A stretch of DNA of 40,360 nucleotides from an uncultured Pyrinomonadaceae bacterium (GTDB taxonomy: Bacteria > Acidobacteriota > Blastocatellia > Pyrinomonadales > Pyrinomonadaceae), in the NCBI GenBank assembly GCA_964246655.1, contig CAXTSK010000001.1, positions 1 to 40,360 on the forward strand, written 5' to 3'. The position numbers and the translations under genes were made by a program. The notes under the pieces were generated by a model. The model saw only the letters and a program-made list of their open reading frames with translations. It ran no database searches and was not told where the DNA came from. Shown here piece by piece: positions 1,253-39,685 of the stretch (position 1 is the first letter of the stretch; every line of letters begins with the position of its first letter).

Positions 1253-1299
1253 AAAGTTCAAAGTCGAAAGTTGAAAGCTTTTTCTTCAACTTTGAACTT
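1253..1299. repeat. junction palindrome, 7-nt units AAAGTTC/AAAGTCG/AAAGTTG
   Basis: Left arm 1253-1277 aaagttcaaagtcgaaagttgaaag; right arm 1284-1299 cttcaactttgaactt. The left arm carries one extra 7-mer unit. Confidence 0.6.
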
Positions 1300-1537: not shown

Positions 1538-1607
1538 TTCTGTCGTCTGCCATCCTGCGTGTGATGCTCTCCGGCGGAAGCGCGGATGGACAGGCGGCGC
1601 CTTTTTT

Positions 1608-2748: not shown

Positions 2749-2826
2749 TTAACCACAGAGACACAGTTCAAACACAGCTTCATCTTTAGCTGTCTTCAAG
2801 CCGTGTCTCTGTGTCTCTGTGGTTGA
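2749..2826. repeat. palindrome of the CACAGAGA family between convergent genes
   Basis: aaccacagagacacag (2751-2766) pairs perfectly with ctgtgtctctgtggtt (2809-2824). The inner stem is acagct/agctgt. The right arm shows 8-nt periodicity (gtgtctct x2). Confidence 0.75.
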
Positions 2827-26308: not shown

Positions 26309-26336
26309 GTTAACCGCGGAGACACGGAGGCACGGC
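26309..26336. repeat. degenerate half-element of the CACAGAGA family
   Basis: gttaaccgcggagacacggaggcacggc differs from 6541-6567 by four A-to-G changes. It lies 15 nt beyond the permease stop. Confidence 0.4.
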
Positions 26337-26350
26337 CGGTCGAGTAATCC

Positions 26351-27193
26351 TCACAGGCCGCCTATGAAGCCGACCACCGTCAACAGGCCGAGGCTCAGGC
26401 TGAAGAGGCCCGCCAGCCCTCGCACGGCGAGGTGTGCGCGCGTGAAGCGCGCGGCCGACCCGCACACGCCGCCGGTGCTGACCTATGCCACCGGCATCGA
26501 CGAATGGCAGCGTTCGGCGAAATGGCCGATGGGCGCGAAGCAGGCGATCTACCTCGCGGCGGACGGCAAGGCGGGTTTGGCCAGGCCGACGACCGCGCTC
26601 ATCTGAATCATCCCCCCGGGGGAGCCGACGCCGAAGACGGCGAGATAGAGAAGCCCGACGAAGGGCGACGAGATGGTCGAGAGCACGAGCAGCGTCAACG
26701 CCGCGCTGCCCGCCAGCCCGTGAATCATCCCGACGAACAGCGGGCGACGGCCCAGCCGCAGGCCGTGATGCGTGTGCGGGTCTTCGGGCTCGGGCGCGGC
26801 GGCGGCGAGGTGCGTGTGGACGTGCGGGTGGATGTGCTCGCGCCCGCCGTGGCGGTGCGTGTGGAGGTGGACGCGGCCGCCGCGCGCGAGCTTCCGCAAA
26901 GCGTTCGCGCCCAGCGCGACCAGCATGAGGCCGACTACGAACTCAAGCGCCCGCTCGGTTCGCGCGCCTATCTCGAAATGAAACAGGATCACGGCGGCGC
27001 CCGCGACCAGCAGCGCGAGCGTGTGGCCGAGGCCCCAGAGTCCGCCCACGAGCGACGAACTCCAGACGCTCCTGCGCTCGCTGACGATGGCTGAGACGGC
27101 CGCCAGGTGGTCGGCCTCGACCGCGTGCTTGAGACCCAGCACGAAGCCGAAGGCCAGCACGGGGGCGGCCGAGAGTGGTTCGGTCGGTGTCAT
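26351..27193 (-). pseudogene. nickel/cobalt permease (UreH/NiCoT-related, HX4DH signature), interrupted
   Basis: ATG 27193 lies 5 nt after the hypE stop. LGLKHAVEADHLAAVS signature, and His-rich loop HLHTHRHGGREHIHPHVHTH...HTHHG. The frame hits TAG at 26549-26551 and again at 26483-26485. The expected last TM helix, RFTRAHLAVRGLAGLFSLSLGLLTVVGFIGGL, then continues in the same frame to the stop at 26351. Confidence 0.6.
26469..26579 (+). other. antisense 37-codon fragment of an unrelated gene embedded in the permease
   Basis: The plus frame reads PPVLTYATGIDEWQRSAKWPMGAKQAIYLAADGKAGL, with 32 of 37 codons ending in G or C and non-shadow amino-acid composition. It resembles the C-terminal beta-domain of CocE/NonD (S15 X-Pro dipeptidyl-peptidase-like) hydrolases. 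Confidence 0.4.
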
Positions 27194-27198
27194 GGAAG

Positions 27199-28308
27199 CT
27201 AACAGATTCTCGGGAGCTGTTCGCCGACGAGCATGTCTACGATGCGCGTGCCGCCGAAGCCCGTCCGCATCGCCACGATGCCCTGCGGCTCGGCCTTCAC
27301 CTCGCCGATGACGCACGCGTCGCGGCCGTAGTCGTGCTCCCGCATGCGCGCGACGATAGAGTCGGCCGCGTCGGCCGCCACTATCGCAACCAGCTTCCCC
27401 TCGTTGGCGACGTAGAGCGGGTCGAGGCCGAGAATCTCGCACGCGCCGTGCACCTCCTCGCGCACGGGGATGAGGTCTTCGCGTATCTCGATGCAGACCT
27501 CGGATGCGAGCGCCATCTCGTTCAACGTCGTCGCCACGCCGCCGCGCGTCGGGTCGCGCAGGCAGTGAACCGCGTCCGCGTTGCCGACGCGCGCGGCCTC
27601 GTCCAACATCTCGCGGACGAGCGAGTGGAGCGGCGCGGTGTCGCTCCGGATGTCGGTCTCAAGCTCCAGCTCGCCGCGCGCGATCATGATGGTCGTGCCG
27701 TGGTCGCCGATGGTTCCGCTCAAGATAACTTTGTCGCCGACCTGCGCGCGCGCGGCGGAGATGCGCACGGGCGACTCGATCACGCCGATGCCCGCGGTGT
27801 TGATGAAGACGCGGTCGGCGCCGCCCTTCTGCACGACCTTCGTGTCGCCCGTCACGACTTGCACGCCCGCCTCGTCGGCCGCCTCGCGCATCGAGGCGAG
27901 GATGCGCCGCAACTCCTCGACGGGGAAACCCTCTTCGATGATGAACGCGGAGGAGAGGTAGAGCGGGCGGGCGCCGCTCATCGCGAGGTCGTTGACCGTG
28001 CCGCAGACGGCGAGCCGCCCGATGTCGCCGCCGGGGAAGAAGACCGGCGTGACGACGTAGGAGTCGGTCGTAAACGCCAGCCGCGCGCGCCCCTCGCCTT
28101 CGCCCACCTCGAAGACGGCCTGGTCTTCCAAGGCTTCGAGCAGAGGGTTGCGCAGTTGTTCGAGGAAGAGCCCTTCGATCAGCTCGTGCATCGCGCGCCC
28201 GCCGCTGCCGTGCGCGAGCGTAATCTGCTCGTCCCGGAGCTTGCGCTTCCTCCGACGCGCGCGCTCGACGCGCTCGAAGAGCGGCGATGGTGTGAACTCG
28301 CTTGTCAT
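27199..28308 (-). CDS. hypE: hydrogenase maturation protein HypE
   Basis: ITLAHGSGGRAMHELI, an AIR-synthase-like fold, and the C-terminal motif GEQLPRIC. Confidence 0.95.
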   Translation of the reverse strand: MTSEFTPSPLFERVERARRRKRKLRDEQITLAHGSGGRAMHELIEGLFLEQLRNPLLEALEDQAVFEVGEGEGRARLAFTTDSYVVTPVFFPGGDIGRLAVCGTVNDLAMSGARPLYLSSAFIIEEGFPVEELRRILASMREAADEAGVQVVTGDTKVVQKGGADRVFINTAGIGVIESPVRISAARAQVGDKVILSGTIGDHGTTIMIARGELELETDIRSDTAPLHSLVREMLDEAARVGNADAVHCLRDPTRGGVATTLNEMALASEVCIEIREDLIPVREEVHGACEILGLDPLYVANEGKLVAIVAADAADSIVARMREHDYGRDACVIGEVKAEPQGIVAMRTGFGGTRIVDMLVGEQLPRIC

Positions 28309-28316
28309 CTCAGAAT

Positions 28317-28378
28317 GTTGGGTGTTGGGTGCTGGGTGTTAGGTGCTGGTTAAAACCAAAACCCAACACCTAACACCC
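28317..28378. repeat. junction palindrome, GGGTGTT/AGGTGTT family
   Basis: The left arm is five 7-mers (gttgggt gttgggt gctgggt gttaggt gctggtt). The right arm is aaacccaacacctaacaccc, about 2.5 units. It fills the hypD-stop to hypE-start gap. Confidence 0.75.
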
Positions 28379-28380
28379 TT

Positions 28381-29502
28381 CTAGCTGCCTGCCGCGGAGC
28401 GCTCGGCAATCTTCGAGAGTCGGCCGAAGTTGTAGTAGGCCGCGCACGCGCCTTCGCTTGAGACCATGCACGAGCCGATGGGCGTCTCCGGCGTGCAGGC
28501 CGTGCCGAAGACCTTGCACTCCCACGGCCGCTTGACGCCTTTCAGAATCTCGCCGCACTGGCAAGCCTTCGGGTCGGCCACGCGCAGGCCGGGCACGTTG
28601 AATTTCAGCTCGGCGTCGAAGCGGGCGTACTTGCGGCTGAGCTTCATGCCGCTGTGCGCGATGGAGCCGAGGCCGCGCCACTCGAAGAAGTCGCGCGGCT
28701 CGAACACGTCGAAGAGCACTTCGAGCGCCTTGCGGTTGCCGTCGCGGTTGACGCAGCGCCCGTACTGGTTCTCGACCTCCACCCGACCTTCGACGACCTG
28801 ACGGACGAGCATGTGGATCGACTGAAGGATGTCGAGCGGCTCGAAGCCCGCGACGACGACCGGCTTGCCGTACTCCGCTGGGACGAACTCGTAAGGCCGC
28901 GTGCCGATGACCGTGCTGACGTGGCCGGGGCCGAGGAAGCCGTCGAGTTGCAAGTCGGGCGAGTCGAGCAGCGCCTTCAAAGCCGGCACGATCATGATGT
29001 GGTTGCAGAAGACGGAAAAGTTCTCGACGCCGTCCTTCTCCGCCTGCATGACGGTCAACGCCGTCGAGGGCGCGGTCGTCTCGAAGCCAAGCGCGAGGAA
29101 GACGACGTGCCGGTCGGGGTTCTTCTTCGCCAGCTTCAAAGCGTCGAGCGGCGAGTAGACCATCCGCACGTCCGCACCCGAAGCCTTCGCGTCGAGCAGA
29201 CTCGTCTTCGAGCCCGGCACGCGCATCGCGTCGCCGAAGGTCGTGAAGATGACGCCGGGCCGCTGCGCAATCGAGACGGCGTCGTCCACGCGCCCCAGGG
29301 GGATGACGCAGACGGGGCAGCCCGGCCCGTGAATCATCATGATGTTGGGCGGCAGCAAGTCCTCGATGCCGTACTTGAAGATGGTGTGCGTGTGGCCGCC
29401 GCAGACCTCCATGAACTTAAGCGGGCGCGAGGTCGTGTGCGCGATCTCCGCCGCCAGCCTCTCGGCGATGTCGCCCTGCCGGTACTCGTCTACGAACTTC
29501 AT
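28381..29502 (-). CDS. hypD: hydrogenase maturation protein HypD
   Basis: ATG 29502 with GGGGAGG upstream. MKFVDEYR, EVCGGHTHTI, GPGCPVCV, and a C-terminal Cys cluster. The track ORF extension to 29976 is Arg-rich shadow. Confidence 0.95.
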   Translation of the reverse strand: MKFVDEYRQGDIAERLAAEIAHTTSRPLKFMEVCGGHTHTIFKYGIEDLLPPNIMMIHGPGCPVCVIPLGRVDDAVSIAQRPGVIFTTFGDAMRVPGSKTSLLDAKASGADVRMVYSPLDALKLAKKNPDRHVVFLALGFETTAPSTALTVMQAEKDGVENFSVFCNHIMIVPALKALLDSPDLQLDGFLGPGHVSTVIGTRPYEFVPAEYGKPVVVAGFEPLDILQSIHMLVRQVVEGRVEVENQYGRCVNRDGNRKALEVLFDVFEPRDFFEWRGLGSIAHSGMKLSRKYARFDAELKFNVPGLRVADPKACQCGEILKGVKRPWECKVFGTACTPETPIGSCMVSSEGACAAYYNFGRLSKIAERSAAGS

Positions 29503-30260
29503 ACTCCGGCCTCCCCTTCGACCAAAGACTTGTGCTGCAAGAACTCGTGCACCACGTCCCACATGACGTGGTAGAGGGCGACGTGCGTCTCCTGTACGCG
29601 GTGGATGCTCGAAGTGGGGACGGTCAGACAGAAGTCGAGCAGCCCCGCCGCGCGCAACTCTTCCATCCGACCGCCGTCGCCGCCCGCGAAGCCCAACGTG
29701 CCGAGCTTCAGGCGGCGCGCGGTCGCGAAGGCGTGCGAGAGGTTCTCGGAGTTGCCGCTCGTCGAGATGCCCAGAAGCACGTCGCCTTCCTGCCCGAGCG
29801 CGATGAGCTGGCGCGTGAACACGTCGCCGAAGCCCACGTCGTTCGCGACGGCTGTGACCATCGCCATGTCGTTCGTCAGGCAGATGGCGGGCAGCGCCTT
29901 GCGCCCCACCGTGACGGGGTGCATGAACTCGACGGCGACGTGCTGCGCGTCGGTCGCCGAACCGCCGTTGCCGCACACCAGCAGCTTGCGCCCGCGGTGA
30001 AAAGCCTTCGCCAGCAGGAGCGACGCCGAAAGGATCGTGTCCTTGTTCTCCTCGAAGAACTTCGACTTGACCTCGACGCTCTCGCGCGCCTTCTCCAGCA
30101 GAGAGAAGCGCAGCTCTTCCAACAACTCGCCCGGCCCGCGCTCGTCCGCGTGCAGGAAGGGGTAGAAAGCTCGCGAGAAATCCCCGCCGATTGCGGACTG
30201 CGGATTGCGGATTGCGGATTCGCCCTCTTCCTTCATTCCTTGTTTATTCCCCTGCGGCAT
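29499..30260 (-). CDS. SIS-domain (GmhA/phosphoheptose-isomerase-like) protein
   Basis: LLVCGNGGSATDAQHVAVEF...LLGISTSGNSENL. ATGA overlap with hypD. The N-terminal 25 aa (ESAIRNPQSAI) are encoded by a repeat arm, so the true start is uncertain. Confidence 0.8.
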   Translation of the reverse strand: MPQGNKQGMKEEGESAIRNPQSAIGGDFSRAFYPFLHADERGPGELLEELRFSLLEKARESVEVKSKFFEENKDTILSASLLLAKAFHRGRKLLVCGNGGSATDAQHVAVEFMHPVTVGRKALPAICLTNDMAMVTAVANDVGFGDVFTRQLIALGQEGDVLLGISTSGNSENLSHAFATARRLKLGTLGFAGGDGGRMEELRAAGLLDFCLTVPTSSIHRVQETHVALYHVMWDVVHEFLQHKSLVEGEAGV

Positions 30261-30312
30261 TCACATTCACCTCTTTAACAATCCACAATCCGAATTCCGC
30301 AATCCGCAATCA
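30189..30312. repeat. junction palindrome, GATTGCG family, copy 1
   Basis: Left arm gattgcggactgcggattgcggattgcggattcg; right arm caatccacaatccgaattccgcaatccgcaatc. The 56-nt loop contains ATG 30260. Positions 30278-30312 are identical to 38785-38819 (35 nt). Confidence 0.85.
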
Positions 30313-30576
30313 TTCCAGAGCCGTCTGGAACTGGTCGAACTCGTCCTTGAATTGCCCGATCTCCTCCAGGATGCGCAGCGTCTCCATCGCCTCGTGCTCG
30401 TCGATGCGGGTCATCGCGAAGCCGACGTGAATCAACACGTAGTTGCCGACCGCCGCCTCTTCCCTGTCGAGCATCCCGACGTTGACGTTGCGCCGCACGC
30501 CGCCGACCTCGACCTTGGCGATGAAGTTCTCCGCGTCAACTATCTCGACGATCTTTCCGGGTATCGCTAAGCACAT
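30310..30576 (-). CDS. hypC: hydrogenase assembly chaperone HypC/HupF
   Basis: An 88-aa ORF beginning with the invariant MCLAIPGKIVEI. Confidence 0.95.
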   Translation of the reverse strand: MCLAIPGKIVEIVDAENFIAKVEVGGVRRNVNVGMLDREEAAVGNYVLIHVGFAMTRIDEHEAMETLRILEEIGQFKDEFDQFQTALE

Positions 30577-30581
30577 GGGCT

Positions 30582-32900
30582 CTAAATCCTCCCCGCCAAG
30601 AGGCGGGCGTTGGCGACGGCCGCCTGGCCGAGACTGATGCCGCCGTCGTTCGGCGGCACGCGGCTGTGTGTGAAGACCTCGAAGCCTTCGCGCCGGAGCA
30701 GACGGCTCGCGCGTTCGAGCAGGAGCATGTTCTGGAAGACGCCGCCCGACAGCACGACGCGGTTGATTCTTTGCGCGTCCCTCACGCGGCGCGCGACGGA
30801 CGCGATGAGCGAAGCCACTCCGAGATGAAACTTCGCGGAGACCGTCTCGGGCGCGAGCCCTTCGAGCAGGTCTTCGACCGCGGCACGGACGACGCCTTCG
30901 GCCTTGATGACTCCATCTTCAAGCCCGAACTCGTAACCTTGCGCGCACGCGCGGTCGGCCACAGTCTCCAACTCAATCGCCGCCTGCCCTTCGTAGTTGA
31001 CCGCGCTTCGAACACACAGGAGCCCCGCCACGGCGTCGAACAGGCGGCCCATGCTCGACGTTTCGGGACTGTTCGTGCCGGACCTGGTCATGCCGCGCAG
31101 GGCGCCCCACGCGCGCCGGTCGAGCCTTCGGACGAATGGTAAATCCAAGTTTAGAAAGTCGTCGCCGAAAGTGCGTTGCAGGTAGACGGCGGCCATGCGC
31201 CAGGGCTCGCGGACGGCCCGCGCGCCGCCGGGCATCGGGACGTAGTCGAGGTGCGCGACGCGCTCTGCCCTCAAGAAGTCCGCGACGAAGAACTCGCCGC
31301 CCCACATGCGCCCGTCCGCGCCGAAGCCGAGCCCGTCCAGCGCGACGCCGATGACTTCGCCCTCAATCCGGTTGTCGGCCATGCAGCTCGCGACGTGCGC
31401 GTGGTGGTGCTGGACGCCGACGCGCTCGAACTCATCATTGAGCGCGAGCGCGTACTTCGTTGAGAGGTATTCGGGGTGGAGGTCGTGCGCGATTATTTCA
31501 GGCCGCAGTTGAAAGAGGCGCTTGAAGTGCTCGATGCCCTGCTCGTAGGAGCGCAGCGTCTCAAGGTTTTCCAGGTCGCCGACGTGTTGGCTGACGAAGG
31601 CGTGGCGGTCGCGCGCGAGACAGAAGGTGTTCTTCAACTCTGCGCCGCAGGCGAGGACTTCTCTTTTGAACTTAAAGCCCACCGCCAAAGGCGCGGGCGC
31701 GTAGCCGCGCGCGCGGCGCAAGACCATCTCCCGCCCTTCGTGCGCGCGCACCACCGAGTCGTCCGTCCGCATCTTGATTCGCCGGTCGTTGAGCAGCAAA
31801 TAATCTGCGATGTCGTGCAGACGTTCGCGCGCGTCGCCGTCTTCGTAGCAGATGGGCTCGTCGGAGACGTTGCCGCTGGTCAGCACGAGCGGGCGGTCGA
31901 GTTCTTCAAGAAGCAGTTGATGCAAAGGCGTGTACGGCAGCATGAAGCCGAGCGTCTTCACGCCGGGCGCGATGGCGGCGGGGAGGTTCGAGTCTTCTTT
32001 ACGCGCGAGCAGCACGACGGGGCGGCGCGGCGAGAGGAGCAGAGACTCCTCGGCCTCCGAGACGGCACAGTGGCGTCGCACGACTTCGACGGAACTCGCC
32101 ATCAGCGCGAACGGCTTCTCCTCGCGATACTTCCTCCCGCGCAGGCGTTCGACGGCGGCAACGTCCGTCGCGTCGCAGGCGAGGTGGTAACCGCCGACGC
32201 CTTTAACGGCGACGATCTTCCCGCCCAGGAGCAGACGGCGCACGTGGCCGATGATGTCTATTCCATCAACCTCGTCGAACTCGGCTTCAAGCCCGAACGC
32301 GTCCGTCAGCTTCAAATCTGGGCCGCAAGTCCGGCAGGCAATCGGCTCGGCGTGGAAGCGCCGGTCGAGCGGGTTCTCGTATTCGGCGCGGCACTCGTCG
32401 CACATCGCGAAGTCGCGCATCGTGGTGCGCGCGCGGTCGTAAGGCGTGGCCTCGACGATGGTGAAGCGCGGGCCGCAGTTGGTGCAGTTGATGAAGGGGT
32501 AGCGGTAGCGCCTGTCCGTCGGGTCGCGCATCTCGCGCAGGCAGTCCGCGCAGGTCGCCACGTCGGCCGAGACGGGGACGAACTTTTCGCCCGCGTCGGC
32601 GCTCTCGACAATCCGGAAGTCTTCGTACCGCGCCGGGTTTAAGTCATAGTCCGACTCGACCGACTCGACGAGTGCGAGCGGCGGTGCTTCGGTTTTAAGC
32701 TCGCCGACGAATTGCCCGATTGCGTCCTCGTCGCCTTCCACATCGATGAGCACGCCGGCCGTGTCGTTCAAGACCAGACCTTTGAGCGAGTGCCTTCGGG
32801 CGAGCGCGTAGACGAAGGGGCGGAAGCCGACGCCCTGCACGATGCCGCGCACACGTACCCGGACGCGCGTGAGGGTCAGACGTGTTTGGGCGAGGTGCAT
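30582..32900 (-). CDS. hypF: carbamoyltransferase HypF
   Basis: ATG 32900. Acylphosphatase domain VRGIVQGVGFRPFVY; two zinc-finger pairs (CADCLREM...CTNCGPRF and CDECRAEY...CRTCGP); YrdC-like and Kae1-like domains. The upstream extension of the track ORF translates the repeat (ITHHSSLIT). Confidence 0.95.
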   Translation of the reverse strand: MHLAQTRLTLTRVRVRVRGIVQGVGFRPFVYALARRHSLKGLVLNDTAGVLIDVEGDEDAIGQFVGELKTEAPPLALVESVESDYDLNPARYEDFRIVESADAGEKFVPVSADVATCADCLREMRDPTDRRYRYPFINCTNCGPRFTIVEATPYDRARTTMRDFAMCDECRAEYENPLDRRFHAEPIACRTCGPDLKLTDAFGLEAEFDEVDGIDIIGHVRRLLLGGKIVAVKGVGGYHLACDATDVAAVERLRGRKYREEKPFALMASSVEVVRRHCAVSEAEESLLLSPRRPVVLLARKEDSNLPAAIAPGVKTLGFMLPYTPLHQLLLEELDRPLVLTSGNVSDEPICYEDGDARERLHDIADYLLLNDRRIKMRTDDSVVRAHEGREMVLRRARGYAPAPLAVGFKFKREVLACGAELKNTFCLARDRHAFVSQHVGDLENLETLRSYEQGIEHFKRLFQLRPEIIAHDLHPEYLSTKYALALNDEFERVGVQHHHAHVASCMADNRIEGEVIGVALDGLGFGADGRMWGGEFFVADFLRAERVAHLDYVPMPGGARAVREPWRMAAVYLQRTFGDDFLNLDLPFVRRLDRRAWGALRGMTRSGTNSPETSSMGRLFDAVAGLLCVRSAVNYEGQAAIELETVADRACAQGYEFGLEDGVIKAEGVVRAAVEDLLEGLAPETVSAKFHLGVASLIASVARRVRDAQRINRVVLSGGVFQNMLLLERASRLLRREGFEVFTHSRVPPNDGGISLGQAAVANARLLAGRI

Positions 32901-32901
32901 A

Positions 32902-32977
32902 AGAGTGATGAGTGATGAGTGATGAGTGATAAGAAAGACCGGCGGGCCTTTGTCATCACTCATAACTCATCACTTCT
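32902..32977. repeat. junction palindrome, GTGATGA family, copy 1
   Basis: agagtgatgagtgatgagtgatgagtgataag pairs with tcatcactcataactcatcacttct, about 21 bp with 1 mismatch. The right arm encodes the hypB C-terminus and stop. Confidence 0.8.
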
Positions 32978-33630: not shown

Positions 33631-33974
33631 TGTTCCAGCTCCAGTGCCACGACCTCAAGCTCCTTACCGCGCAAGACCTGCGAAGTGGGCGTGCCGCACG
33701 CGGGGCAGAAGAATTTCTGGACGGAGGCGAGCGTCTGCTCCTCCGCGCATGCGGGGCAGAAGACGACGACGGGCACGTCCTCGATGACGAGGCGCGAGCC
33801 TTCGAGCGGCGTGCCCTCGCACGCCACCTCGTAGGAGAAGAGCAGCGCCTCGCGCACGACGCCCGACAGCGGCCCCAACTTCAAGTGAATCGCGCACACC
33901 TGCACACCGCCGCGCCGCGCCGCCTCCTCCGCGGCCATCTCGATCATGCTCATGGCGATGGAAAGCTCGTGCAT
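33627..33974 (-). CDS. hypA: hydrogenase nickel-insertion protein HypA
   Basis: ATG 33974 gives MHELSIA (the Ni-binding N-terminus). Zinc site CPAC...CPACG. ATGA overlap with hypB. Confidence 0.9.
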   Translation of the reverse strand: MHELSIAMSMIEMAAEEAARRGGVQVCAIHLKLGPLSGVVREALLFSYEVACEGTPLEGSRLVIEDVPVVVFCPACAEEQTLASVQKFFCPACGTPTSQVLRGKELEVVALELEQ

Positions 33975-33977
33975 GAG

Positions 33978-34065
33978 AAGAAAGTGAGCAGTGAGCAGTT
34001 GAAAGAAATACTGCCGCGCTCGCTTCAACTTGAAACTGCTCACTGCTCACCGCTCACTGCTTACT
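33978..34065. repeat. junction palindrome, GTGAGCA units
   Basis: A perfect 17-bp stem, gtgagcagtgagcagtt (33984-34000) with aactgctcactgctcac (34034-34050). The right arm carries extra units out to 34065. The inner element agttgaaag...cttcaact resembles 1253-1299. Confidence 0.8.
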
Positions 34066-34635
34066 GGCAACGATGTCGAACTTGAACTTCAGCTCGTTCT
34101 TGACCTTGAGCATGCCGCCGAGGGCCGTGACCGGCTTGATCTTGTAGTCGGCCTGCCGGATAGTAAACTCGCCCTGCGCGCGGAGGTCTTCGTCCTTGAA
34201 AGTCACCTCCGCCTGAATCCAGAGGTTGGGCTGGGTGACGCCGTGCAGGGTCAGGTTGCCGATGACGCGGGCGCGGTAGAGACCTTCCCTGACGCGGCTC
34301 GCCGTGACGCTCGTGCTCTCGAAGGAGACCTCCGGGTACTTCGAGACTTCGAGCGCGTCTTCGCGCATCATGCGGTCGATCTCGGGGCGATCCTTCTCCT
34401 TCGCTTCGTCCACCGTCGCGAGAGAAGCCGCCTTGATCGTCAGGCGGACGCGCGCCCCTTCGAGCGTGCCGGGGACGAACTCGACCTCGCCCCCGAAGTC
34501 GCCGATGCCGATGACGGGGTTGTGGCCGAGCGAAGAGAGCAGCCCCTCTGCGAACGCCTGCACGGTGAACCGGCTCCGGCCGGCGTCGAGCCGGTAGTGA
34601 ACCACTTCCGCAGCTTCCGCGGCGTTTCCGCTCAT
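34054..34635 (-). CDS. YceI-like (polyisoprenoid-binding lipocalin-like) protein, no signal peptide
   Basis: ATG with AGGAAGG upstream. SRFTVQAF...GHNPVIGIGDFGGEVEF...ASLATVD...REDALEVSKYPEVSFEST...GNLTLHGVTQP fits the YceI beta-barrel pattern. Confidence 0.7.
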   Translation of the reverse strand: MSGNAAEAAEVVHYRLDAGRSRFTVQAFAEGLLSSLGHNPVIGIGDFGGEVEFVPGTLEGARVRLTIKAASLATVDEAKEKDRPEIDRMMREDALEVSKYPEVSFESTSVTASRVREGLYRARVIGNLTLHGVTQPNLWIQAEVTFKDEDLRAQGEFTIRQADYKIKPVTALGGMLKVKNELKFKFDIVASKQ

Positions 34636-34719
34636 AAACCTTCCTGACGAGGGCGGCCGTCAGGGCCGGGCCGCCTCTCAGCTTCTACAGCCTCAGACCG
34701 CGGGCGGCCCGCGCCCCGT

Positions 34720-34962
34720 TCACATCGACCTGAGTTTCATGTAGCGCTCGAAGTCCGGGATAATCGTGGACAGTCCTCCGGCGAGGTTGCCCGGCTCCAA
34801 CAGACCGGCCGGCAGCACGCGGCCCAACGCTTCGCGCGCCTGTTGGCGGATGCTCGGGTTCGCCAGCAGCAACCCGGCCCCCACGATCAGGAAGCCGACG
34901 CCGGCGACCAGGAACGCCATCTCGTTCGAGTCGTTCGAACCGTTAGCCTCATTGTCTGCCAT
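34720..34962 (-). CDS. small single-pass membrane protein (80 aa)
   Basis: ATG 34962 with GAGGAGG 6 nt upstream. TM segment MAFLVAGVGFLIVGAGLLLA. The C-terminus IIPDFERYMKLRSM is paralogous to the next small ORF. Confidence 0.55.
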   Translation of the reverse strand: MADNEANGSNDSNEMAFLVAGVGFLIVGAGLLLANPSIRQQAREALGRVLPAGLLEPGNLAGGLSTIIPDFERYMKLRSM

Positions 34963-34983
34963 CACAGTCCTCCTCTTTTGATT

Positions 34984-35060
34984 CGTGATGAGTGATGAGT
35001 GATAAGTGAAGAGATAAGCGGCAAGAAGCGTTATCCTTCTCATCACTTATTACTCATCAC
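34984..35060. repeat. junction palindrome, GTGATGA family, copy 2
   Basis: cgtgatgagtgatgagtgataagtgaagagataagcg pairs imperfectly with cgttatccttctcatcacttattactcatcac. Confidence 0.7.
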
Positions 35061-35066
35061 CGCCTT

Positions 35067-35222
35067 TCACATTCGTACCATGTTCCAATACCGGCGGATG
35101 TCGTGAAGCTGCGAAATCACGCCGACCGCGACGAGCACGAGCACCGCGCCCCCGAGGATGGGCAAGACGCCGACTTGAGGCCGCCGATGCCTTCTCTTCT
35201 CCAAAGACTCTTTCTGTTTCAT
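35067..35222 (-). CDS. small single-pass membrane protein (51 aa; below the ORF-track cutoff)
   Basis: Hand translation gives MKQKESLEKRRHRRPQVGVLPILGGAVLVLVAVGVISQLHDIRRYWNMVRM. Basic N-terminus, one TM segment, and a C-terminal DIRRYWNMVRM matching the DFERYMKLRSM of the 80-aa neighbour. The stop abuts the repeat arm. Confidence 0.45.
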   Translation of the reverse strand: MKQKESLEKRRHRRPQVGVLPILGGAVLVLVAVGVISQLHDIRRYWNMVRM

Positions 35223-35253
35223 CCGAACTCACCCCTTTCTCTAAATGGCCCCT

Positions 35254-35805
35254 TCACGACACCGCCTGTGCGCGACTCTCGTCCAGAATTTTCGTGACAA
35301 GCGACTCGACCACCCCGACGGCCTCTTCGGCGGCGGCCTCGACCGGCCCGCTCAAACCCATCAGCCCCTCCTCGCCGCCGAGCGTCAACGGCTCGCAGCC
35401 GACGAGCAGGATGCGCTTGAACTCGCCGCCCATGGCCTTCACCATGCCGAGCACCTTCAGGGGGTTCATGCCGTGTGTTTCGACCATTATCCCCCCCTCT
35501 CCGGCGTCGTTCAAATCATTCAGGTCGGGCTCGATGGTGTAGAGCGTGCCGGGCTCTCCGCCGCGCGGGGTCGCGTCCACGAAGACGGTCACGTCGGGGC
35601 CGTCCATGATCGCGTAGGCGAGGTCGAAGCCGCGGATGCCGAAGTCCACCACGCGCACGCCTTCGGGAAGTTGCCGTCCGGCGAGGCGTCGCGCGACCTC
35701 GCAGCCGAAGGCGTCGTCGCCCATGAAGATGTTCCCGATGCCTGCGACGAGGATGCTCGTCGATTTCGGATTTGGGATTGCGGATTGCGGATTGAAGGAC
35801 ATCAT
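35254..35805 (-). CDS. [NiFe]-hydrogenase maturation endopeptidase (HupD/HyaD/HybD family)
   Basis: ILVAGIGNIFMGDDAFGCEVARRL, VDFGIRGFDLAY, VFVDA, HGMNP. There is no alternative start between the loop ATG and the conserved core, so the repeat arm (FNPQSAIPNPKS) must be translated. Confidence 0.9.
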   Translation of the reverse strand: MMSFNPQSAIPNPKSTSILVAGIGNIFMGDDAFGCEVARRLAGRQLPEGVRVVDFGIRGFDLAYAIMDGPDVTVFVDATPRGGEPGTLYTIEPDLNDLNDAGEGGIMVETHGMNPLKVLGMVKAMGGEFKRILLVGCEPLTLGGEEGLMGLSGPVEAAAEEAVGVVESLVTKILDESRAQAVS

Positions 35806-35849
35806 TGCTCTCCCTTAATCCGCAATCCGCAATCCGAGTTCCGCAATTG
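35762..35849. repeat. junction palindrome, GATTGCG family, copy 2
   Basis: A perfect 19-bp stem, ggattgcggattgcggatt (35775-35793) with aatccgcaatccgcaatcc (35817-35835). The 23-nt loop holds the overlapping stop (35802-35804) and start (35805-35803). Confidence 0.85.
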
Positions 35850-36146
35850 AGGAAGCGGCTCGACCTCTTCGGGCGAGAAGAAGAAGCGGTGGCCGGGCTG
35901 GCGTTGCATCCCGAGGTCGCGGCCCGGGTCGTCTTCGAGGACGACCGCCAGGTGGTTTCGGCCCTCGTAGTCCTGCTCGATTGATTCGACGACGGCGACC
36001 TGCCCCGCGAGCGCGAGGTCGAAGATGTCGCCGCCCGCCCTCGGGCGCAGACGGACGCGGTCACCCGCTTTGACCTCCACGCCCGAGACGTTGACGCCCT
36101 CGACCTGCGTCTTCTCCTCAAGCAGTTGCCACTCCCACTCGTTCAT
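35802..36146 (-). CDS. conserved hydrogenase-cluster protein of unknown function (114 aa)
   Basis: ATG start with coding-like composition (VKAGDRVRLRPRAGGDIFDLALAGQVAVVESIEQDYEGRNHLAVVLEDDPGRDLG...GHRFFFSPEEVEPL). The last 17 aa derive from the repeat arm. Confidence 0.7.
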   Translation of the reverse strand: MNEWEWQLLEEKTQVEGVNVSGVEVKAGDRVRLRPRAGGDIFDLALAGQVAVVESIEQDYEGRNHLAVVLEDDPGRDLGMQRQPGHRFFFSPEEVEPLPQLRNSDCGLRIKGEQ

Positions 36147-36156
36147 GGCTTCGTTG

Positions 36157-36244
36157 GTGAATAGTGAATGGTAAATAGTAAATGGAGAAAAGAGGAATCG
36201 GTTTTTAACTATTCACCATTTACTATTTACCATTCACTATTTAC
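36157..36244. repeat. junction palindrome, GTGAATA/GTAAATG units
   Basis: The 29-nt arms 36157-36185 and 36216-36244 match 28/29, with 26 contiguous. The AT-rich 7-mers are gtgaata gtgaatg gtaaata gtaaatg. The right arm contains the stop of the 361-aa gene. Confidence 0.85.
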
Positions 36245-37322
36245 TCCCTTTCAGGCTGCGCATCGCGCCGTGCATCTTCATCAACTGTTCGGCGGGGAGT
36301 TGTTCGGTGCGTTCGAGGATGCGGCGGGCGCGTTCGTCGGCGCCGCGCATCTCGCGCTTCTCCTCGTCGGTCATCGTCATGATGCGGAGCGTCAGTATCT
36401 CGTCGATCTCCGTCCCGTCGAAGAGTTCACCCGCCGACTCGGGCGCGATCTGCGGGTAGTCGTAGAGGATGATGGGCGACGAGAGCACACAGCCGCGCTC
36501 GCCTTCTTCCCCCACCAACACCGGGTACGTCCCGACGTTTTGACAACTGGCGGCGGCTTCCTTGTAGCCTTCGGGCGGGTCGAGCAGCGAGACGAACTCG
36601 CCCCCGCGCACGCTCAGGATGGTGTGGGTCGAGACGAAGGAGCGCATCAACGCTTCGTCCCGACTTCTTCCGTCCGCGCCTTCCAACGGCGTCAGATTCA
36701 GGACGCGCACGTTGATTTTGAACGCGCCCGAGTCTACGCGCTCGGCCGAGACCTCGACGGCGCCTTCGACCGCCTGCCGACGGCGGACGACGACGCCCGC
36801 CACTTGACCATTCGTCTCGTCGCGCAGCGGCTCGACCTCCCGGCTCCGCGGGAAAGAGAACGCGAGCCGCCGCGGCCGTTCGACGACTTCGTCCAGGTTA
36901 AGGGACGAGATACTTACGTCGCGCTCGACCGACTCCTGCCACGTCTGAAACAGCCGCCCGCACACTTCGAGCGACGCGACGACGCTCAAATCCGAGTCGA
37001 AGACGTAAGACTGAATCTGCCTGTCGCCCAGGCCCGCGATCCGCGAGGCGCAGTCGGCGCGCGGCACGCACACCTCGCGCTCGGACAGGTGCAGAAATCT
37101 CACCTTCACGTCGAGCGCCGTCGCCACGCCGCCCTCGGCGAGGCATTCGGTCTGCATCGTCCAAGCCTCGGTTCCGCCCTGCGCGCGGCTGTAAGGCTCG
37201 GGGCAGAGCGCGCCGAAGTTCCAACGCTGCTGGTTCTTCACCGCCGACGGCCGGTACGGGTAGAGGATGTACCCCTCGTAGAGCACCGCGTCGGCAATCT
37301 TTTCCACGAGACCGAGATTCAT
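36237..37322 (-). CDS. conserved hydrogenase-cluster protein of unknown function (361 aa)
   Basis: ATG start. MNLGLVEKIADAVLYEGYILYPYRPSAVKNQQRWNFG...PIILYDYPQIAPES...EIDEILTLRIMTMTDEEKREMR. Globular composition and no family I can name. Confidence 0.8.
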   Translation of the reverse strand: MNLGLVEKIADAVLYEGYILYPYRPSAVKNQQRWNFGALCPEPYSRAQGGTEAWTMQTECLAEGGVATALDVKVRFLHLSEREVCVPRADCASRIAGLGDRQIQSYVFDSDLSVVASLEVCGRLFQTWQESVERDVSISSLNLDEVVERPRRLAFSFPRSREVEPLRDETNGQVAGVVVRRRQAVEGAVEVSAERVDSGAFKINVRVLNLTPLEGADGRSRDEALMRSFVSTHTILSVRGGEFVSLLDPPEGYKEAAASCQNVGTYPVLVGEEGERGCVLSSPIILYDYPQIAPESAGELFDGTEIDEILTLRIMTMTDEEKREMRGADERARRILERTEQLPAEQLMKMHGAMRSLKGSK

Positions 37323-37330
37323 AAGGATTT

Positions 37331-37390
37331 CAGTTTTTAGTTTTTAGTTTTCAGTAAGAACGAATGTCATTAACTGAAAACTGAAAACTG
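37331..37390. repeat. junction palindrome, CAGTTTT units
   Basis: cagtttttagtttttagttttcagt (three units) pairs with actgaaaactgaaaactg (two units). Confidence 0.7.
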
Positions 37391-37394
37391 TCTT

Positions 37395-38030
37395 TCAGTC
37401 ATCGTTCGGCATTAAGCTTTCCAACGTCTGTTCCCACGTCGGAATCCCTTGGCGCATCTTGTAGCGGTAGAGCCGGTCGAACACGTCGCGGCGCAGGCGG
37501 AGCCACGCGCTGTTCGGGTAATAGTGCTCCATCATCTCTTCCCAGACGCGCACCGGCAGGCGGAACTGCGCTTCCCTGTCCCAGGGGATCTGCACGGCCT
37601 GCAAGCCGCGCTCGCCGCCCTCGTAAAAGACCGTGCCGCTGAACATCAGGTTGAGCGGCACTTCACCTGCTTCAAGACCGGCGAAATATTTCGTCGCGGC
37701 CACGTTGAAGTCGAAGGTGCAAGGCACGTGCAGGTCAACCAGCGTGCTCCCCGCGAAGTGAGTCACGACGGCGGTCGTGTGCGTCCAGAGCATCGCGCGC
37801 AGGGTGTGGCCCCAACGCTCCGGCTCGCCGAAGAGGTCTTGCAGACGCCCCTTCTCCTCCGCCGTGTAGTGCCGCTTCGTCGTCTCAATCTGAATCTGGC
37901 AGCGCAGCGTGACGCTCTGAATCTGCTCGCCCGCGTCCGCGTTGGCGATGCGCAGCTTGAAGCAGAGCAGCGGCGCCGCCGCGAAGGGTACGACCTCGGC
38001 CCCCTCGACCTTGAAGCTCAGCTCGGGCAC
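37395..38030 (-). CDS. conserved hydrogenase-cluster protein, DUF6084-like (211 aa)
   Basis: GTG 38030 with AAGGAG 4 nt upstream is preferred over the longest-ORF start inside the repeat. PELSFKVEGAEVVPFAAAPLLCFKLRI...LRCQIQIETTKRHY...LFGEPERWG...VPCTFDFNVAATKYF...PLNLMFSGTVFY. Confidence 0.75.
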   Translation of the reverse strand: MPELSFKVEGAEVVPFAAAPLLCFKLRIANADAGEQIQSVTLRCQIQIETTKRHYTAEEKGRLQDLFGEPERWGHTLRAMLWTHTTAVVTHFAGSTLVDLHVPCTFDFNVAATKYFAGLEAGEVPLNLMFSGTVFYEGGERGLQAVQIPWDREAQFRLPVRVWEEMMEHYYPNSAWLRLRRDVFDRLYRYKMRQGIPTWEQTLESLMPNDD

Positions 38031-38042
38031 GAAACTCCTTAA

Positions 38043-38126
38043 GAGCCGTGAACCGTGAGCCGTAAACCGTGACAAGAATAACTGACCTTAAACTTGTCGC
38101 GGTTCACGGTTCACGGTTTACAGCTT
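38043..38126. repeat. junction palindrome, CCGTGAA units
   Basis: gagccgtgaaccgtgagccgtaaaccgtgacaag pairs imperfectly with cttgtcgcggttcacggttcacggtttacagctt. The right arm encodes the upstream C-terminus KAVNREP and its stop. Confidence 0.75.
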
Positions 38127-38778
38127 TCACCTTCAGCCCGGCGAAGAACGCTTCTATCCCGCGCCAGACCTCAGTACCGCCGGACAGTCCGCGCCAGCCC
38201 GCGCGGATCAGCCCGACGAGCTTGAAGCACTCGTCAATCGGTGCGATGTAGTAGTCGGCCGCGCCGCGCACGCGGTTGACGAGCAGAGCCTCCACGTCCG
38301 GCTCCAACTCGCGCAGCACCGGATTCTCTTCCAAGACCTCGGCCCACGCCGAGAGGTCTAAGAGCGACTCGGTCGCGCCCGCCGGGCTCGGGTAGAGCGC
38401 GAGCGTTCTCCCCGCGGGGCTGCTGTGGAAGAAGAAGGCCATGCCGATGGGGAGCATCAGGCTCTCCCACTGCGCGTCCGACATACGGAAGTCCGCGAGG
38501 TAGCGCACGCGGCGCGGGACGCGCCTGTACTTCGTCTCCGTCTGCCCGCTGAAGAGAATCGCGCACGCCTCGCAGGAGCAGAAGAGCTGGCGGGTCGGCG
38601 GCTCGAATAGGTGCGAGTGTTCGGACGACAGTTCTGCGCCGCACAGGTCGCAGCGCTCCGCCGCCGCCGCGCGCGGCCGCACGAAACGCCGCAGCACTTC
38701 GATTGCGGATTGCGGATTGCGGATTGCGGATTCTCCGACCACAGAAGACGGGCTGTTTTTTTCGAGGTCGTTCGTCAT
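38104..38778 (-). CDS. conserved hydrogenase-cluster protein, DUF5947-like, with a CxxC...CxCxxC motif
   Basis: ATG 38778 lies in the repeat loop; the track start at 38793 is a GTG inside the arm. ERCDLCGAELSSEHSHLFEPPTRQLFCSCEACAILF...YRRVP...MLPIGMAFFF...ALYPSPAGATES. Confidence 0.75.
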   Translation of the reverse strand: MTNDLEKNSPSSVVGESAIRNPQSAIEVLRRFVRPRAAAAERCDLCGAELSSEHSHLFEPPTRQLFCSCEACAILFSGQTETKYRRVPRRVRYLADFRMSDAQWESLMLPIGMAFFFHSSPAGRTLALYPSPAGATESLLDLSAWAEVLEENPVLRELEPDVEALLVNRVRGAADYYIAPIDECFKLVGLIRAGWRGLSGGTEVWRGIEAFFAGLKVKAVNREP

Positions 38779-38819
38779 CTCAGTACAATCCACAATCCGA
38801 ATTCCGCAATCCGCAATCA
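38701..38819. repeat. junction palindrome, GATTGCG family, copy 3
   Basis: The left arm is 4.5 x gattgcg (38701-38733). The right arm is identical over 35 nt to 30278-30312. The 52-nt loop holds ATG 38778. Confidence 0.85.
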
Positions 38820-38821
38820 GT

Positions 38822-39043
38822 TCAGGCCGGCGGCATGTTCGGGCTGTCGTCGTCCGACTCTACTTTGCCGGGGTTGATGGCCGTCGAATCTCTGGCGGTC
38901 GAGCCGCCGGAGGGGCGGTCGGCGTGCGTCGTCCCGGCGTCGTGACGGCCCGGCTCCTTCCCCTCGTCGTCCTTAATCTCCTCGCCCTGACGTGTGCCCG
39001 GCGTGTGCGTCGGCGCGTCCGCCGAAGTGTCCTGGTCTCCCAT
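38822..39043 (-). CDS. small acidic, low-complexity hydrophilic protein (73 aa)
   Basis: ATG 39043 with GAGGAGG 8 nt upstream. The stop abuts a repeat arm, as at other real gene ends. MGDQDTSADAPTHTPGTRQGEEIKDDEGKEPGRHDAG... Confidence 0.45.
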   Translation of the reverse strand: MGDQDTSADAPTHTPGTRQGEEIKDDEGKEPGRHDAGTTHADRPSGGSTARDSTAINPGKVESDDDSPNMPPA

Positions 39044-39067
39044 CGTTCTCTCCTCCTCAAAGACCTT

Positions 39068-39613
39068 TTAAGTAGAGGACAAGGCGGCGACGCTGGCCTG
39101 CCGCTTCCCTATCTGCACGAAGCCGTTCGAGGGGGCGGCGGGCGGCGTCTGCTCCGCGACGCCTTCAGCTTCGATGGCCGCCACGTCGGGCGCCTCCTTG
39201 TAGATCGCCTCCTCGATGGCGAGCTTGAGCGTCATCGAAGACGAAGGGCACGTCTTGCAACTTCCCTGAAGCCTGAGCCGCACCGTCCCCGCCTCGATGC
39301 CGAGCAGTTCGACGTTGCCCCCGTGTGAATCGAGATAAGGCCGCACCTTGTCGAGCGCCTGCAAGACCCTCTCTTCGAGCGGCACGGGATGCAGCCCGTA
39401 GAGCAGCAGCAGGTTCCCGACCAGCTCGTCGCCCGCCAAGCGGTCGAAGATGCGGTAGCCGGCCTCGCCCTCTTCCGCAATGATCTCCATCAAACGGTCG
39501 AGCCCCGCGCCGTGGAAGTCCATCAACGACTGCATCAGCTCCACGGCCGCCGCGCGCGCCTCCGGGTCGGGCAGCGCCTCTATCTTGCGAATCAACTCTT
39601 CGACTTTTTGCAT
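39068..39613 (-). CDS. NifU-C-terminal-domain (Fe-S cluster scaffold-like) protein
   Basis: ATG 39613. An N-terminal helical domain is followed by RPYLDSHGGNVELLGIEAGTVRLRLQGSCKTCPSSSMTLKLAIEEAI, the NifU-like CxxC module. Confidence 0.85.
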   Translation of the reverse strand: MQKVEELIRKIEALPDPEARAAAVELMQSLMDFHGAGLDRLMEIIAEEGEAGYRIFDRLAGDELVGNLLLLYGLHPVPLEERVLQALDKVRPYLDSHGGNVELLGIEAGTVRLRLQGSCKTCPSSSMTLKLAIEEAIYKEAPDVAAIEAEGVAEQTPPAAPSNGFVQIGKRQASVAALSST

Positions 39614-39624
39614 CGCGATTAGAC

Positions 39625-39685
39625 GGGTGTTAGGTGTTGGGTGAAAAACAAGTTGCCTGTCCCCAACACCCAACACCTAACACCC
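39625..39685. repeat. junction palindrome, GGGTGTT/AGGTGTT family, copy 2
   Basis: A perfect 19-bp stem, gggtgttaggtgttgggtg (39625-39643) with cacccaacacctaacaccc (39667-39685), and a 23-nt loop. Confidence 0.85.

Follow-up and report, generated by a model that had tools for sequence, protein, structure and literature searches.

Palindromes built from tandem heptamer repeats occupy gene junctions of a [NiFe]-hydrogenase operon in an uncultured Pyrinomonadaceae bacterium

We analysed a 40,360-nt stretch of DNA from an uncultured Pyrinomonadaceae bacterium (assembly GCA_964246655.1, contig CAXTSK010000001.1, positions 1 to 40,360 of the forward strand), hereafter the window, with a G+C content of 62-71% per kilobase apart from one stretch of 58%. 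The minus strand holds every gene from 26.5 kb to the end of the window, and these genes form a [NiFe]-hydrogenase operon of group 1h with hyp genes. Eleven junctions of this operon are occupied by hairpins, each made of two inverted arrays of a 7-nt unit around a unique spacer. This architecture is well supported, and palindromes of this kind are carried in gene junctions by Pyrinomonadaceae and by other soil bacteria.

In the order of transcription, the operon begins with the C-terminal part of the large subunit, followed by a NifU-like gene, a 73-aa open reading frame (ORF), DUF5947 and DUF6084. Its middle part encodes proteins of 361 aa and 114 aa without a Pfam match, a HycI-type maturation protease, two small membrane ORFs and YceI, and its end encodes HypA, HypB, HypF, HypC, a SIS/GmhA-like protein, HypD, HypE and a NicO-like nickel transporter. 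HypA to HypF were named from their translations and the conserved gene order, without a Pfam scan, and the other genes by translation or Pfam. This gene content agrees with that of the high-affinity hydrogenase clusters of group 1h/5 reported from Acidobacteria, and the group 1h enzyme is credited with the scavenging of atmospheric H2 by soil Acidobacteria (PMC5900883).

A sequence-only reading of the window, made by a model, had pointed out these eleven hairpins and four more outside the operon. All of them were found by an inverted-repeat search, and the arms are tandem 7- or 8-nt arrays as described: Tandem Repeats Finder (TRF) detected the periodicity on both arms for most elements and on at least one arm for all 15. 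An arm holds 2.4-5.4 units (TRF), and the two arms lie a median of 27 nt apart (quartiles 17-49 nt). Folded as RNA of the coding strand, the eleven operon hairpins have energies between -17.7 and -60.3 kcal/mol and z-scores between -4.0 and -9.7, and none of 200 shuffles matched the fold energy of any of them. The elements are listed below, those of the operon first (MFE, minimum free energy; z, z-score; SD, Shine-Dalgarno sequence).

39625..39685, minus strand: hairpin at the large-subunit gene/NifU-like gene junction, unit GGGTGTT; 19-nt arms, 100% complementary; MFE -43.7 kcal/mol, z -7.0; stop TAA (39695-39697) 9 nt ahead of the stem, ATG (39611-39613) 11 nt behind it, no SD.
38700..38819, minus strand: hairpin at the 73-aa ORF/DUF5947 junction, unit GATTGCG; 32-nt arms, 91% complementary; MFE -60.3 kcal/mol, z -7.8; stop TGA (38822-38824) 2 nt ahead of the stem; large loop containing the DUF5947 start codon ATG (38776-38778); 3' arm (AATCCGC)n translated as SAIRNPQSAI.
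38040..38129, minus strand: hairpin at the DUF5947/DUF6084 junction, unit CCGTGAA; MFE -51.3 kcal/mol, z -9.7; 5' arm containing the stop TGA (38104-38106); 3' arm followed by AAGGAG and a GTG start (38028-38030).
37331..37390, minus strand: hairpin at the DUF6084/361-aa gene junction, unit CAGTTTT; MFE -17.7 kcal/mol, z -5.0; TRF period 7 on both arms; stop TGA (37395-37397) 5 nt ahead of the stem; ATG at 37320-37322.
36157..36244, minus strand: hairpin at the 361-aa/114-aa junction, GTAAATA and GTGAATG forming a 14-nt super-unit; 36-nt arms, 92% complementary; MFE -41.0 kcal/mol, z -9.3; 5' arm containing the stop TAG (36237-36239); ATG (36144-36146) 10 nt behind the stem.
35757..35853, minus strand: hairpin spanning the 114-aa gene/maturation-protease junction, unit GATTGCG, both arms coding; MFE -50.4 kcal/mol, z -7.8; loop holding the overlapping stop and protease ATG (ATGA, 35802-35805) beside AAGGGAGAG; 5' arm encoding ...DCGLRIKGEQ*, 3' arm encoding MMSFNPQSAIPNPK.
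34985..35060, minus strand: hairpin at the junction of a 51-aa membrane ORF (35067-35222) and an 80-aa membrane protein, unit GTGATGA; MFE -32.6 kcal/mol, z -5.5; stop TGA (35067-35069) 6 nt ahead of the stem, which is followed by AAGAGGAGG and ATG (34960-34962).
33978..34066, minus strand: hairpin at the YceI/HypA junction, unit GTGAGCA; MFE -40.7 kcal/mol, z -4.0; first repeat unit containing the stop TGA (34054-34056); ATG (33972-33974) 8 nt behind the stem, no SD.
32903..32977, minus strand: hairpin at the HypB/HypF junction, unit GTGATGA; MFE -39.9 kcal/mol, z -9.2; HypF ATG (32898-32900) 10 nt behind the stem.
30188..30312, minus strand: hairpin at the HypC/SIS (GmhA-like) junction, unit GATTGCG; 32-nt arms, 88% complementary; MFE -55.4 kcal/mol, z -6.0; HypC stop TGA (30310-30312) forming the first bases of the stem; large loop containing an SD and ATG (30258-30260); 3' arm translated as SAIRNPQSAI.
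28316..28378, minus strand: hairpin at the HypD/HypE junction, unit GGGTGTT; MFE -34.5 kcal/mol, z -5.3; stop TAG (28381-28383) 2 nt ahead; ATG at 28306-28308.
247..307, minus strand: hairpin outside the operon, at the 3' end of the gene for a GntR-family regulator (Pfam), unit CAGTAGA; TRF period 7; RNAfold -35.9 kcal/mol.
1253..1299, minus strand: weaker hairpin outside the operon, upstream of the GntR gene, unit AAGTTGA; 15-nt arms, 93% complementary; TRF period 7; RNAfold -22.7; under the inverted-repeat score threshold.
1443..1540, no strand assigned: hairpin outside the operon amid small ORFs of unknown function, units GGCAACA; TRF period 7; RNAfold -58.7.
2749..2826, no strand assigned: hairpin outside the operon between the convergent genes for DUF2721 (plus strand) and aldehyde dehydrogenase (minus strand) (Pfam), 8-nt units CACAGAGA; 16-nt perfect arms; TRF period 8; RNAfold -43.3.

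Some details of the sequence-only reading had to be adjusted. It had almost every gap of the operon filled; the hairpins occupy 11 of the 18 junctions, the other 7 being overlaps or short gaps of 8-34 nt and one 87-nt spacer. The stems, which it called often perfect, have arm complementarities of 79-100%, and only the element at 39625-39685 is perfect over its whole arm (19 nt). Nor do all elements differ in sequence, as GATTGCG recurs three times and GGGTGTT and GTGATGA twice each. The distal arm was placed 2-20 nt before the next start, which is correct for 8 of the 11; the exceptions are the three GATTGCG elements, whose loops contain the start codon. The exclusion of a CRISPR array stands, since the elements are 7-nt head-to-tail units in inverted pairs and not direct repeats of 24-48 nt with unique spacers of similar size.

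Several arms extend into coding sequence. The (AATCCGC)n 3' arms at 30188-30260, 35757-35805 and 38700-38778 (minus strand) add NPQSAIR-type N-termini to the SIS protein, the protease and DUF5947, respectively, and 5' arms supply C-terminal residues and stop codons of HypB, DUF5947 and the 361-aa and 114-aa proteins. The HypB tail ...VMSYE*, for example, is encoded by repeats because the HypB stop TGA (32956-32958) lies inside the 5' arm. Since relatives lack these extensions, gene predictions for such genomes carry repeat-derived termini; the arms give rise to false N-terminal extensions and changed C-termini.

Heptamer palindromes are abundant well beyond this operon. The comparison set consisted of 80 public-genome loci retrieved with HypF, which together with the window amount to 1.34 Mb; 78 of the 80 are labelled Acidobacteriota, Blastocatellia, Pyrinomonadaceae or Chloracidobacterium, and the other two "bacterium" and Heliomicrobium. 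The best-matching loci share 87%, 85% and 83% HypF identity with the window. As counted with a gapless inverted-repeat finder and a score threshold, the window contains 17 strong inverted repeats, of which 14 are periodic (13 with period 7 and 1 with period 8), and the whole set contains 245, of which 133 have period-7 arms. A dinucleotide shuffle of the same 1.34 Mb gave 7, with none at period 7. In this DNA, TRF reported 383 period-7 arrays, compared with 56 at period 6 and 61 at period 8, and many of the period-7 arrays have no partner array that TRF recognised.

The placement of the hairpins at gene ends is stereotyped, as had been claimed, and it is polar. With genes called by a crude codon-usage caller, 132 of 139 periodic hairpins lie outside called genes and 7 inside. 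For the 95 hairpins between co-directional genes, the median distance is 4 nt from stop to hairpin and 17 nt from hairpin to start; 71 are closer to the stop and 24 closer to the start (p = 1.5e-6). Independent metagenome contigs without hydrogenase genes gave 26 closer to the stop vs 4 (p = 6e-5).

The two arms differ in composition. G exceeds C in the 5' arm of 89 of the 95 hairpins, and among 82 metagenome hairpins whose G and C counts are unequal, 73 show the same; the 5' arm is purine-rich in 84 of the 95. Because this polarity holds on both strands of a palindrome, the order of the arms is uninformative on which strand matters; with the G- and purine-rich arm first on both strands, any 5'-to-3' process meets the purine arm first. 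Start triplets occur at 1.8 per 100 nt in the 3' arm vs 10.3 in the 5' arm, and stop triplets at 2.6 vs 9.3. The same polarity appears around unpaired (GATTGCG)n arrays: long ORFs start at most 45 nt past the C-rich reading 26 times and past the G-rich reading 5 times, and they stop just ahead of the G-rich reading 16 times vs 6.

Hairpin junctions also differ in their translation signals. Starts were anchored by tblastn to the window proteins, and a strong SD was defined by a duplex energy of -6 kcal/mol or lower at -18 to -4. Within one and the same set of orthologous genes, 23% of 70 hairpin junctions have a strong SD vs 65% of 401 hairpin-free junctions. The 3' arm usually ends 10-13 nt before the start codon and therefore occupies the SD position. 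As the genes behind hairpins are intact, conserved and mostly without an SD, the hairpin context must support their translation. An SD looped across the base of the hairpin, in the style of phage T4 gene 25, was rejected as a general explanation, since the 15-nt stretches preceding the 5' arm are SD-like in 20% of cases vs 14% of random coding 15-mers.

The STRR (short tandemly repeated repetitive) sequences have been known since about 1990, with the units CCCCAGT (STRR1), TTGGTCA (STRR2) and CAACAGT (STRR3). When compared with 206 hairpins, TTGGTCA matches 2, and CCCCAGT and CAACAGT match none. In cyanobacteria, STRR sequences are 7-bp repeats that form hairpins, and they have been reported between hupS and hupL of uptake-hydrogenase operons, where transcript stabilisation or translational coupling was proposed and the function is unknown (PMC2670836). 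Both systems show tandem heptamers in intergenic positions, inverted arrays able to pair, and an association with hydrogenase operons. They differ in their hosts, which are filamentous or heterocyst-forming cyanobacteria there and Acidobacteriota (Pyrinomonadaceae) here, and in the extent of the phenomenon: a single operon here can have as many as 11 of its junctions occupied, with the SD displaced and translation reading into some arms. Because the elements have the STRR architecture but neither the STRR units nor the STRR host, they look to us like a previously unreported relative of STRR.

Repetitive extragenic palindromic (REP) elements are extragenic palindromes, often intercistronic and co-transcribed, that stabilise the upstream mRNA segment, as at malE-malF of E. 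coli. A REP family is one conserved sequence with a conserved head and a cognate gene for a REP-associated tyrosine transposase (RAYT). The present hairpins resemble REPs, bacterial interspersed mosaic elements (BIMEs) and REP doublets (REPINs) in being extragenic, often intercistronic and co-transcribed palindromes; they differ in having at least 80 unit families, no conserved head, arms built from repeats and loops that are unique, and the scanned ORFs of the window include no RAYT.

Heptamer repeats were first described decades ago, and to our knowledge no function has been demonstrated for them so far. The unit GCGGATT of the GATTGCG array is one base off the Nostoc unit GGGGATT. Heptamers are the over-represented size of simple repeat in many bacteria, in intergenic DNA (PMC4692102), and their genome-wide excess was reported in 2007 (Mrazek 2007, cited at second hand); Xanthomonas GGGAATC and Nostoc GGGGATT form mostly single arrays with occasional inverted pairs, studied as G-quadruplex formers (PMC4692102), whereas the inverted pair is a regular form here (133 of 245). 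TAACTGA heptamers, for which a role in translation was proposed, occur in marine Beggiatoaceae, cyanobacteria and Bacteroidetes (PMC4679880), and in Beggiatoaceae the arrays lie directly upstream of start codons (PMC4679880, PMC4692102). C-rich arrays precede start codons here as well; the TAACTGA arrays differ in having a single unit, no hairpins, and 169 direct sets vs one indirect repeat (PMC4679880). In Geobacter metallireducens, "predicted global regulator binding sites" of classes 1-3 consist of 3-5 tandem repeats of 7-9 nt in opposite-strand pairs at variable distance (PMC2700814). This class has neither an agreed definition nor a known function, and its tandem, paired and variable-distance features are all present in our hairpins. 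The likeness lies in the paired opposite-strand tandem arrays and in the multiple families per genome, and a CTCCTGA-type unit occurs in 3 hairpins here; the difference is that the Geobacter sites are read as DNA binding sites and that neither stop/start placement nor saturation of an operon was reported for them.

The statement that the hairpins fit no named repeat family was thus too strong, since their architecture fits the published STRR hairpins (PMC2670836) and the paired sites of Geobacter metallireducens (PMC2700814). They have the STRR architecture and lack the tested defining features of REP/RAYT elements, miniature inverted-repeat transposable elements (MITEs) and intrinsic terminators. 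Rfam gave no match at gathering score for the whole window on both strands. A literature search for heptamer repeats in Acidobacteria found no description, 14-mers of the GATTGCG array were unmatched, and searches with the 7-mer units returned matches to primer sequences only. As far as this search went, the elements have not previously been described in Acidobacteria, while the kind itself is known from STRR-like repeats.

The hairpins belong to a polycistronic operon, have no space for promoters beside them and carry no U-tract; they must therefore be transcribed through, and they fold into RNA stems of 17-33 bp. From these sequence features we infer that their most likely mode of action is post-transcriptional. 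In the proposed mechanism, a stem at the upstream stop codon, or a few nt past it, could block 3'-to-5' decay or be processed as a double strand. The 3' arm, rich in C and A, poor in G and with few start and stop triplets, would replace the SD and serve as the leader of the next cistron, and the purine-rich 5' arm would mask this leader as long as no ribosome that terminates on the upstream gene has melted the stem. Such melting would couple the translation of the two cistrons. We give even odds to the reading that these elements are self-expanding, STRR-like repeat palindromes that are transcribed through and act post-transcriptionally, affecting the stability or processing of the mRNA as well as a coupled translation that does not depend on an SD.

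The distribution of the hairpins across relatives bears on this reading. Gene order within the clusters is conserved, which allows comparison junction by junction. At the large subunit/NifU junction, 33 of 47 loci have a strong inverted repeat; 23 of these are heptamer hairpins, which use 18 different units, and the remaining 10 belong to another kind. Heptamer hairpins are present at the YceI/HypA junction in 18 of 41 loci (10 different units) and at the 51-aa ORF/membrane protein junction in 8 of 12, at the HypA/HypB junction, where the genes overlap, in 0 of 51, and at the HypF/HypC junction, with its 7-nt gap, in 1 of 76. The 42 complete clusters (large subunit to HypE) contain 0 to 11 hairpins with a median of 1-2, the window holding the maximum. 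These 42 orthologous clusters form a natural experiment in which the same junctions are empty, filled, or filled with other units, so that mRNA stabilisation or processing, coupling of neighbouring genes, or no effect are open to direct test.

The hairpins are enriched in hydrogenase clusters. Among co-directional junctions, a heptamer hairpin is found at 69 of 493 (14%) when both neighbours are hydrogenase-cluster genes, at 22 of 95 (23%) when one neighbour is, and at 2 of 168 (1.2%) in flanking DNA. Without the use of gene calls, the density is 1.55 per 10 kb within clusters vs 0.26 outside, about 6-fold. This enrichment may reflect either selection or a mutational bias. One selective reason could be a need for long-lived mRNA in starved cells, an idea that draws on the stationary-phase induction reported for Pyrinomonas (PMC5900883). 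The (GATTGCG) unit is also found in three or more copies in at least 120 metagenome contigs (L081-L200; G+C 0.36-0.72), in which 18 arrays lie at contig ends; short-read assemblies may break there. None of these 120 metagenome loci has hydrogenase genes near the array, and the hydrogenase bias is therefore local to the Pyrinomonadaceae clusters and not a property of the unit.

Several points weigh against the post-transcriptional reading, among them the rough gene calls behind the context statistics. The tight placement could result from fitting 60-120 nt into spacers of 10-40 nt while the start region is kept unstructured, and the loss of the SD may be damage rather than design, with the 3' arm physically overwriting the SD position. 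Stem mismatches show no excess of G-U on the sense strand (38 G-U vs 40 A-C) and so give no hint of selection acting on that RNA. The proportion of hairpins between co-directional genes (95 of 139) equals that of the background junctions, and divergent and convergent junctions are also close to background; coupling is therefore not the sole role. Finally, 7 of the 42 complete clusters lack any hairpin, and since many related clusters do without them, the hairpins are dispensable, modulating rather than required.

The main rival explanation is that the palindromes are neutral or selfish repeat DNA: slippage-prone heptamers would accumulate where tolerated, and the placement would be a leftover of purifying selection. 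This is possible, albeit on the unlikely side. The balanced G-U and A-C counts, the hairpin-free clusters and the occupation of all intergenic junction types are at home in it, as are the variable presence and fast unit turnover between close relatives and the arms that run into coding ends and yield arbitrary N- and C-terminal peptides. Units open in all six frames, such as GATTGCG, which has no stop codon in any of them, are not enriched (37% vs 41% expected), and no selection for them was seen. Neutrality sits less well with a density that is roughly 6-fold higher in hydrogenase clusters than in the DNA next to them in the same genomes; the 23-kb sugar-utilisation region of the window has zero heptamer hairpins, though short co-directional gaps are many there. 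It also sits less well with junctions filled repeatedly by unrelated units, as between the large subunit (HhyL) and NifU, and with the conserved, intact genes that are translated behind hairpins mostly without an SD.

How the elements arise and change was followed in the three closest genomes, namely the window and the loci L001 and L035. Their coding flanks align closely, and the hairpins at shared junctions differ. A given junction can be empty or hold other units in genomes with a HypF 83-87% identical to that of the window. At the 361-aa/114-aa junction, the window has a GTAAATA hairpin, L001 an empty 20-nt gap and L035 an AAGTTCA hairpin. At the large subunit/NifU junction, the GGGTGTT of the window is replaced by CCGTGAA in both L001 and L035, and at the HypD/HypE junction, GGGTGTT, which L002 also has, corresponds to ATGATGA in L001 and to ATGATGA nested in another palindrome in L035. 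The HypB/HypF junction carries orthologous hairpins in L001 and L035 that differ in copy number and loop. L001 is without the element at HypC/SIS, and its SIS protein begins MSKESAKDFSRAF. The DUF5947/DUF6084 junction is an empty 22-nt gap in L001 and L035. Empty sites can hold single-unit remnants or seeds, such as CGGTTCA in the DUF5947-DUF6084 spacer of L001 and GCAGTCAGCCATC at the place of the window's GCAATCCGCAATC. Units may be mixed within an array, as with AATGCGG beside AATGATG in L035.

The hairpins comprise at least 80 unit families. When 85 distinct units were optimally rotated, they shared a weak A-R-T-G core (3.55 bits vs 3.06 +/- 0.12 for composition-matched random heptamers), which hints at common descent of the units or at a shared constraint. 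Hairpin pairs share a unit in 10.2% of cases at the same locus vs 3.2% at different loci, and 0 of 1000 permutations reached the observed value. These data suggest growth and homogenisation in place together with some copying between junctions. Replication slippage would lengthen and alter the arrays where they stand, inverted duplication or template switching could transfer the sequence of one arm to the other, and occasional copying between junctions of one genome may occur, with no dedicated transposase evident. Repair of double-strand breaks with telomere-like repeat addition was also considered as the source of the polarity in which the G-rich strand runs towards the centre; it was dropped because each of the 80+ units would need its own template.

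The alternative that the hairpins are non-autonomous mobile elements of the REP/BIME/REPIN or MITE type, moved in trans by a RAYT-like or insertion-sequence (IS) enzyme that targets gene-boundary hairpins, appears unlikely. It would explain why units are shared about three times more within a genome than between genomes, why a CCGTGAA element whose inner stem (GTGACAAG/CTTGTCAC) is identical occupies different junctions in the window and in L001/L035, the nested palindrome at HypD-HypE in L035, and the spread of (GATTGCG)n over at least 120 metagenome contigs with G+C of 0.36-0.72; in Geobacter, moreover, comparable paired repeat sites have IS elements at a fixed distance (PMC2700814). A MITE-type conserved interior is absent, however, as the loops are unique (11 weak similarities among 139 hairpins, loop against loop), and at least 80 unit families have no head sequence in common. 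In three window elements, the arms stand 55-60 nt apart on either side of native start regions. Comparison with relatives speaks against the simple insertion of a ready-made element: no target-site duplication was evident by eye in three empty/filled pairs (73-aa ORF-DUF5947, DUF5947-DUF6084 and 361-aa-114-aa), and in the same comparisons the native spacer is replaced, not interrupted. No transposase or RAYT was present among the window ORFs scanned with Pfam, in agreement with the sequence-only reading; insertion sequences were not looked for in related loci.

Terminators or attenuators without a U-tract that grade expression along the operon are very improbable: strong stems do stand directly behind stop codons, and the most-filled junction follows the structural large-subunit gene, where a step-down of expression would make sense, but a terminator scan gave 5 terminator-like sites vs 11.9 expected by chance, none coinciding with a heptamer hairpin on the coding strand, the lack of a U-tract had been rightly noted, and with conserved hyp genes starting 8-22 nt behind the stems there is no promoter room, so that eleven efficient terminators would silence them. 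Equally remote is a device at the DNA level, either binding sites for a repeat-recognising protein, as proposed for the Geobacter sites, to which the weak A-R-T-G core might point, or 7-nt slippage that switches the SIS, protease and DUF5947 genes, whose 5' coding regions contain (AATCCGC)n and would shift frame with a one-unit change, in line with the copy-number differences between orthologous hairpins; the 80 or more different units argue against a single binding protein, and most hairpins are entirely non-coding.

The post-transcriptional reading can be extended to a joint claim, namely that the hairpins are SD-substitute coupling devices with a masked, SD-independent leader, built and spread without a transposase through slippage and arm-to-arm template switching, and preferentially retained in a starvation-expressed high-affinity hydrogenase operon in parallel to the STRR hairpins of cyanobacterial hup operons. 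That all of these parts would hold at once seems doubtful.

A separate palindromic element of about 120 nt, with the ends (T/G)(T/G)AGGGGCAGGGCAAGTCC...GCCCTGCCCCT(A/C)CAA, was observed in two genomes at different junctions, namely HypC-SIS of L035 (~12595-12737) and SIS-HypD of L003 (~5913-6037). With its conserved ends it looks like a classical MITE or REP-like repeat, unlike the heptamer hairpins.

Other features of the window include two repeats without a partner. An unpaired 8-nt array, CACAGAGA x 2.6, lies at 6546-6566 in the short gap behind a dehydratase gene (4468-6501); it has the unit of the hairpin at 2749-2826, and no matching second arm turned up. At 26317-26335, directly downstream of the last gene of the operon, stands a short 8-nt repeat (CGGAGACA x 2.4) that may represent a decayed arm. 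Elsewhere in the window, the genes covered by the Pfam scan encode proteins of sugar utilisation, including GH67, GH127, a TonB-dependent receptor and a ROK regulator.

Within the operon, the sole long spacer without heptamers (34636-34719, minus strand; 87 nt, G+C-rich) lies at the membrane ORF/YceI junction. Its block GAGAGGCGGC(C/G)CGGCCC is conserved in L001 and L035, and it could be an internal promoter or another kind of structured element. The 51-aa ORF at 35067-35222 (minus strand), which is easily missed by annotation, has a hydrophobic core and a good SD and is matched by tblastn beside the protease gene in 14 related loci.

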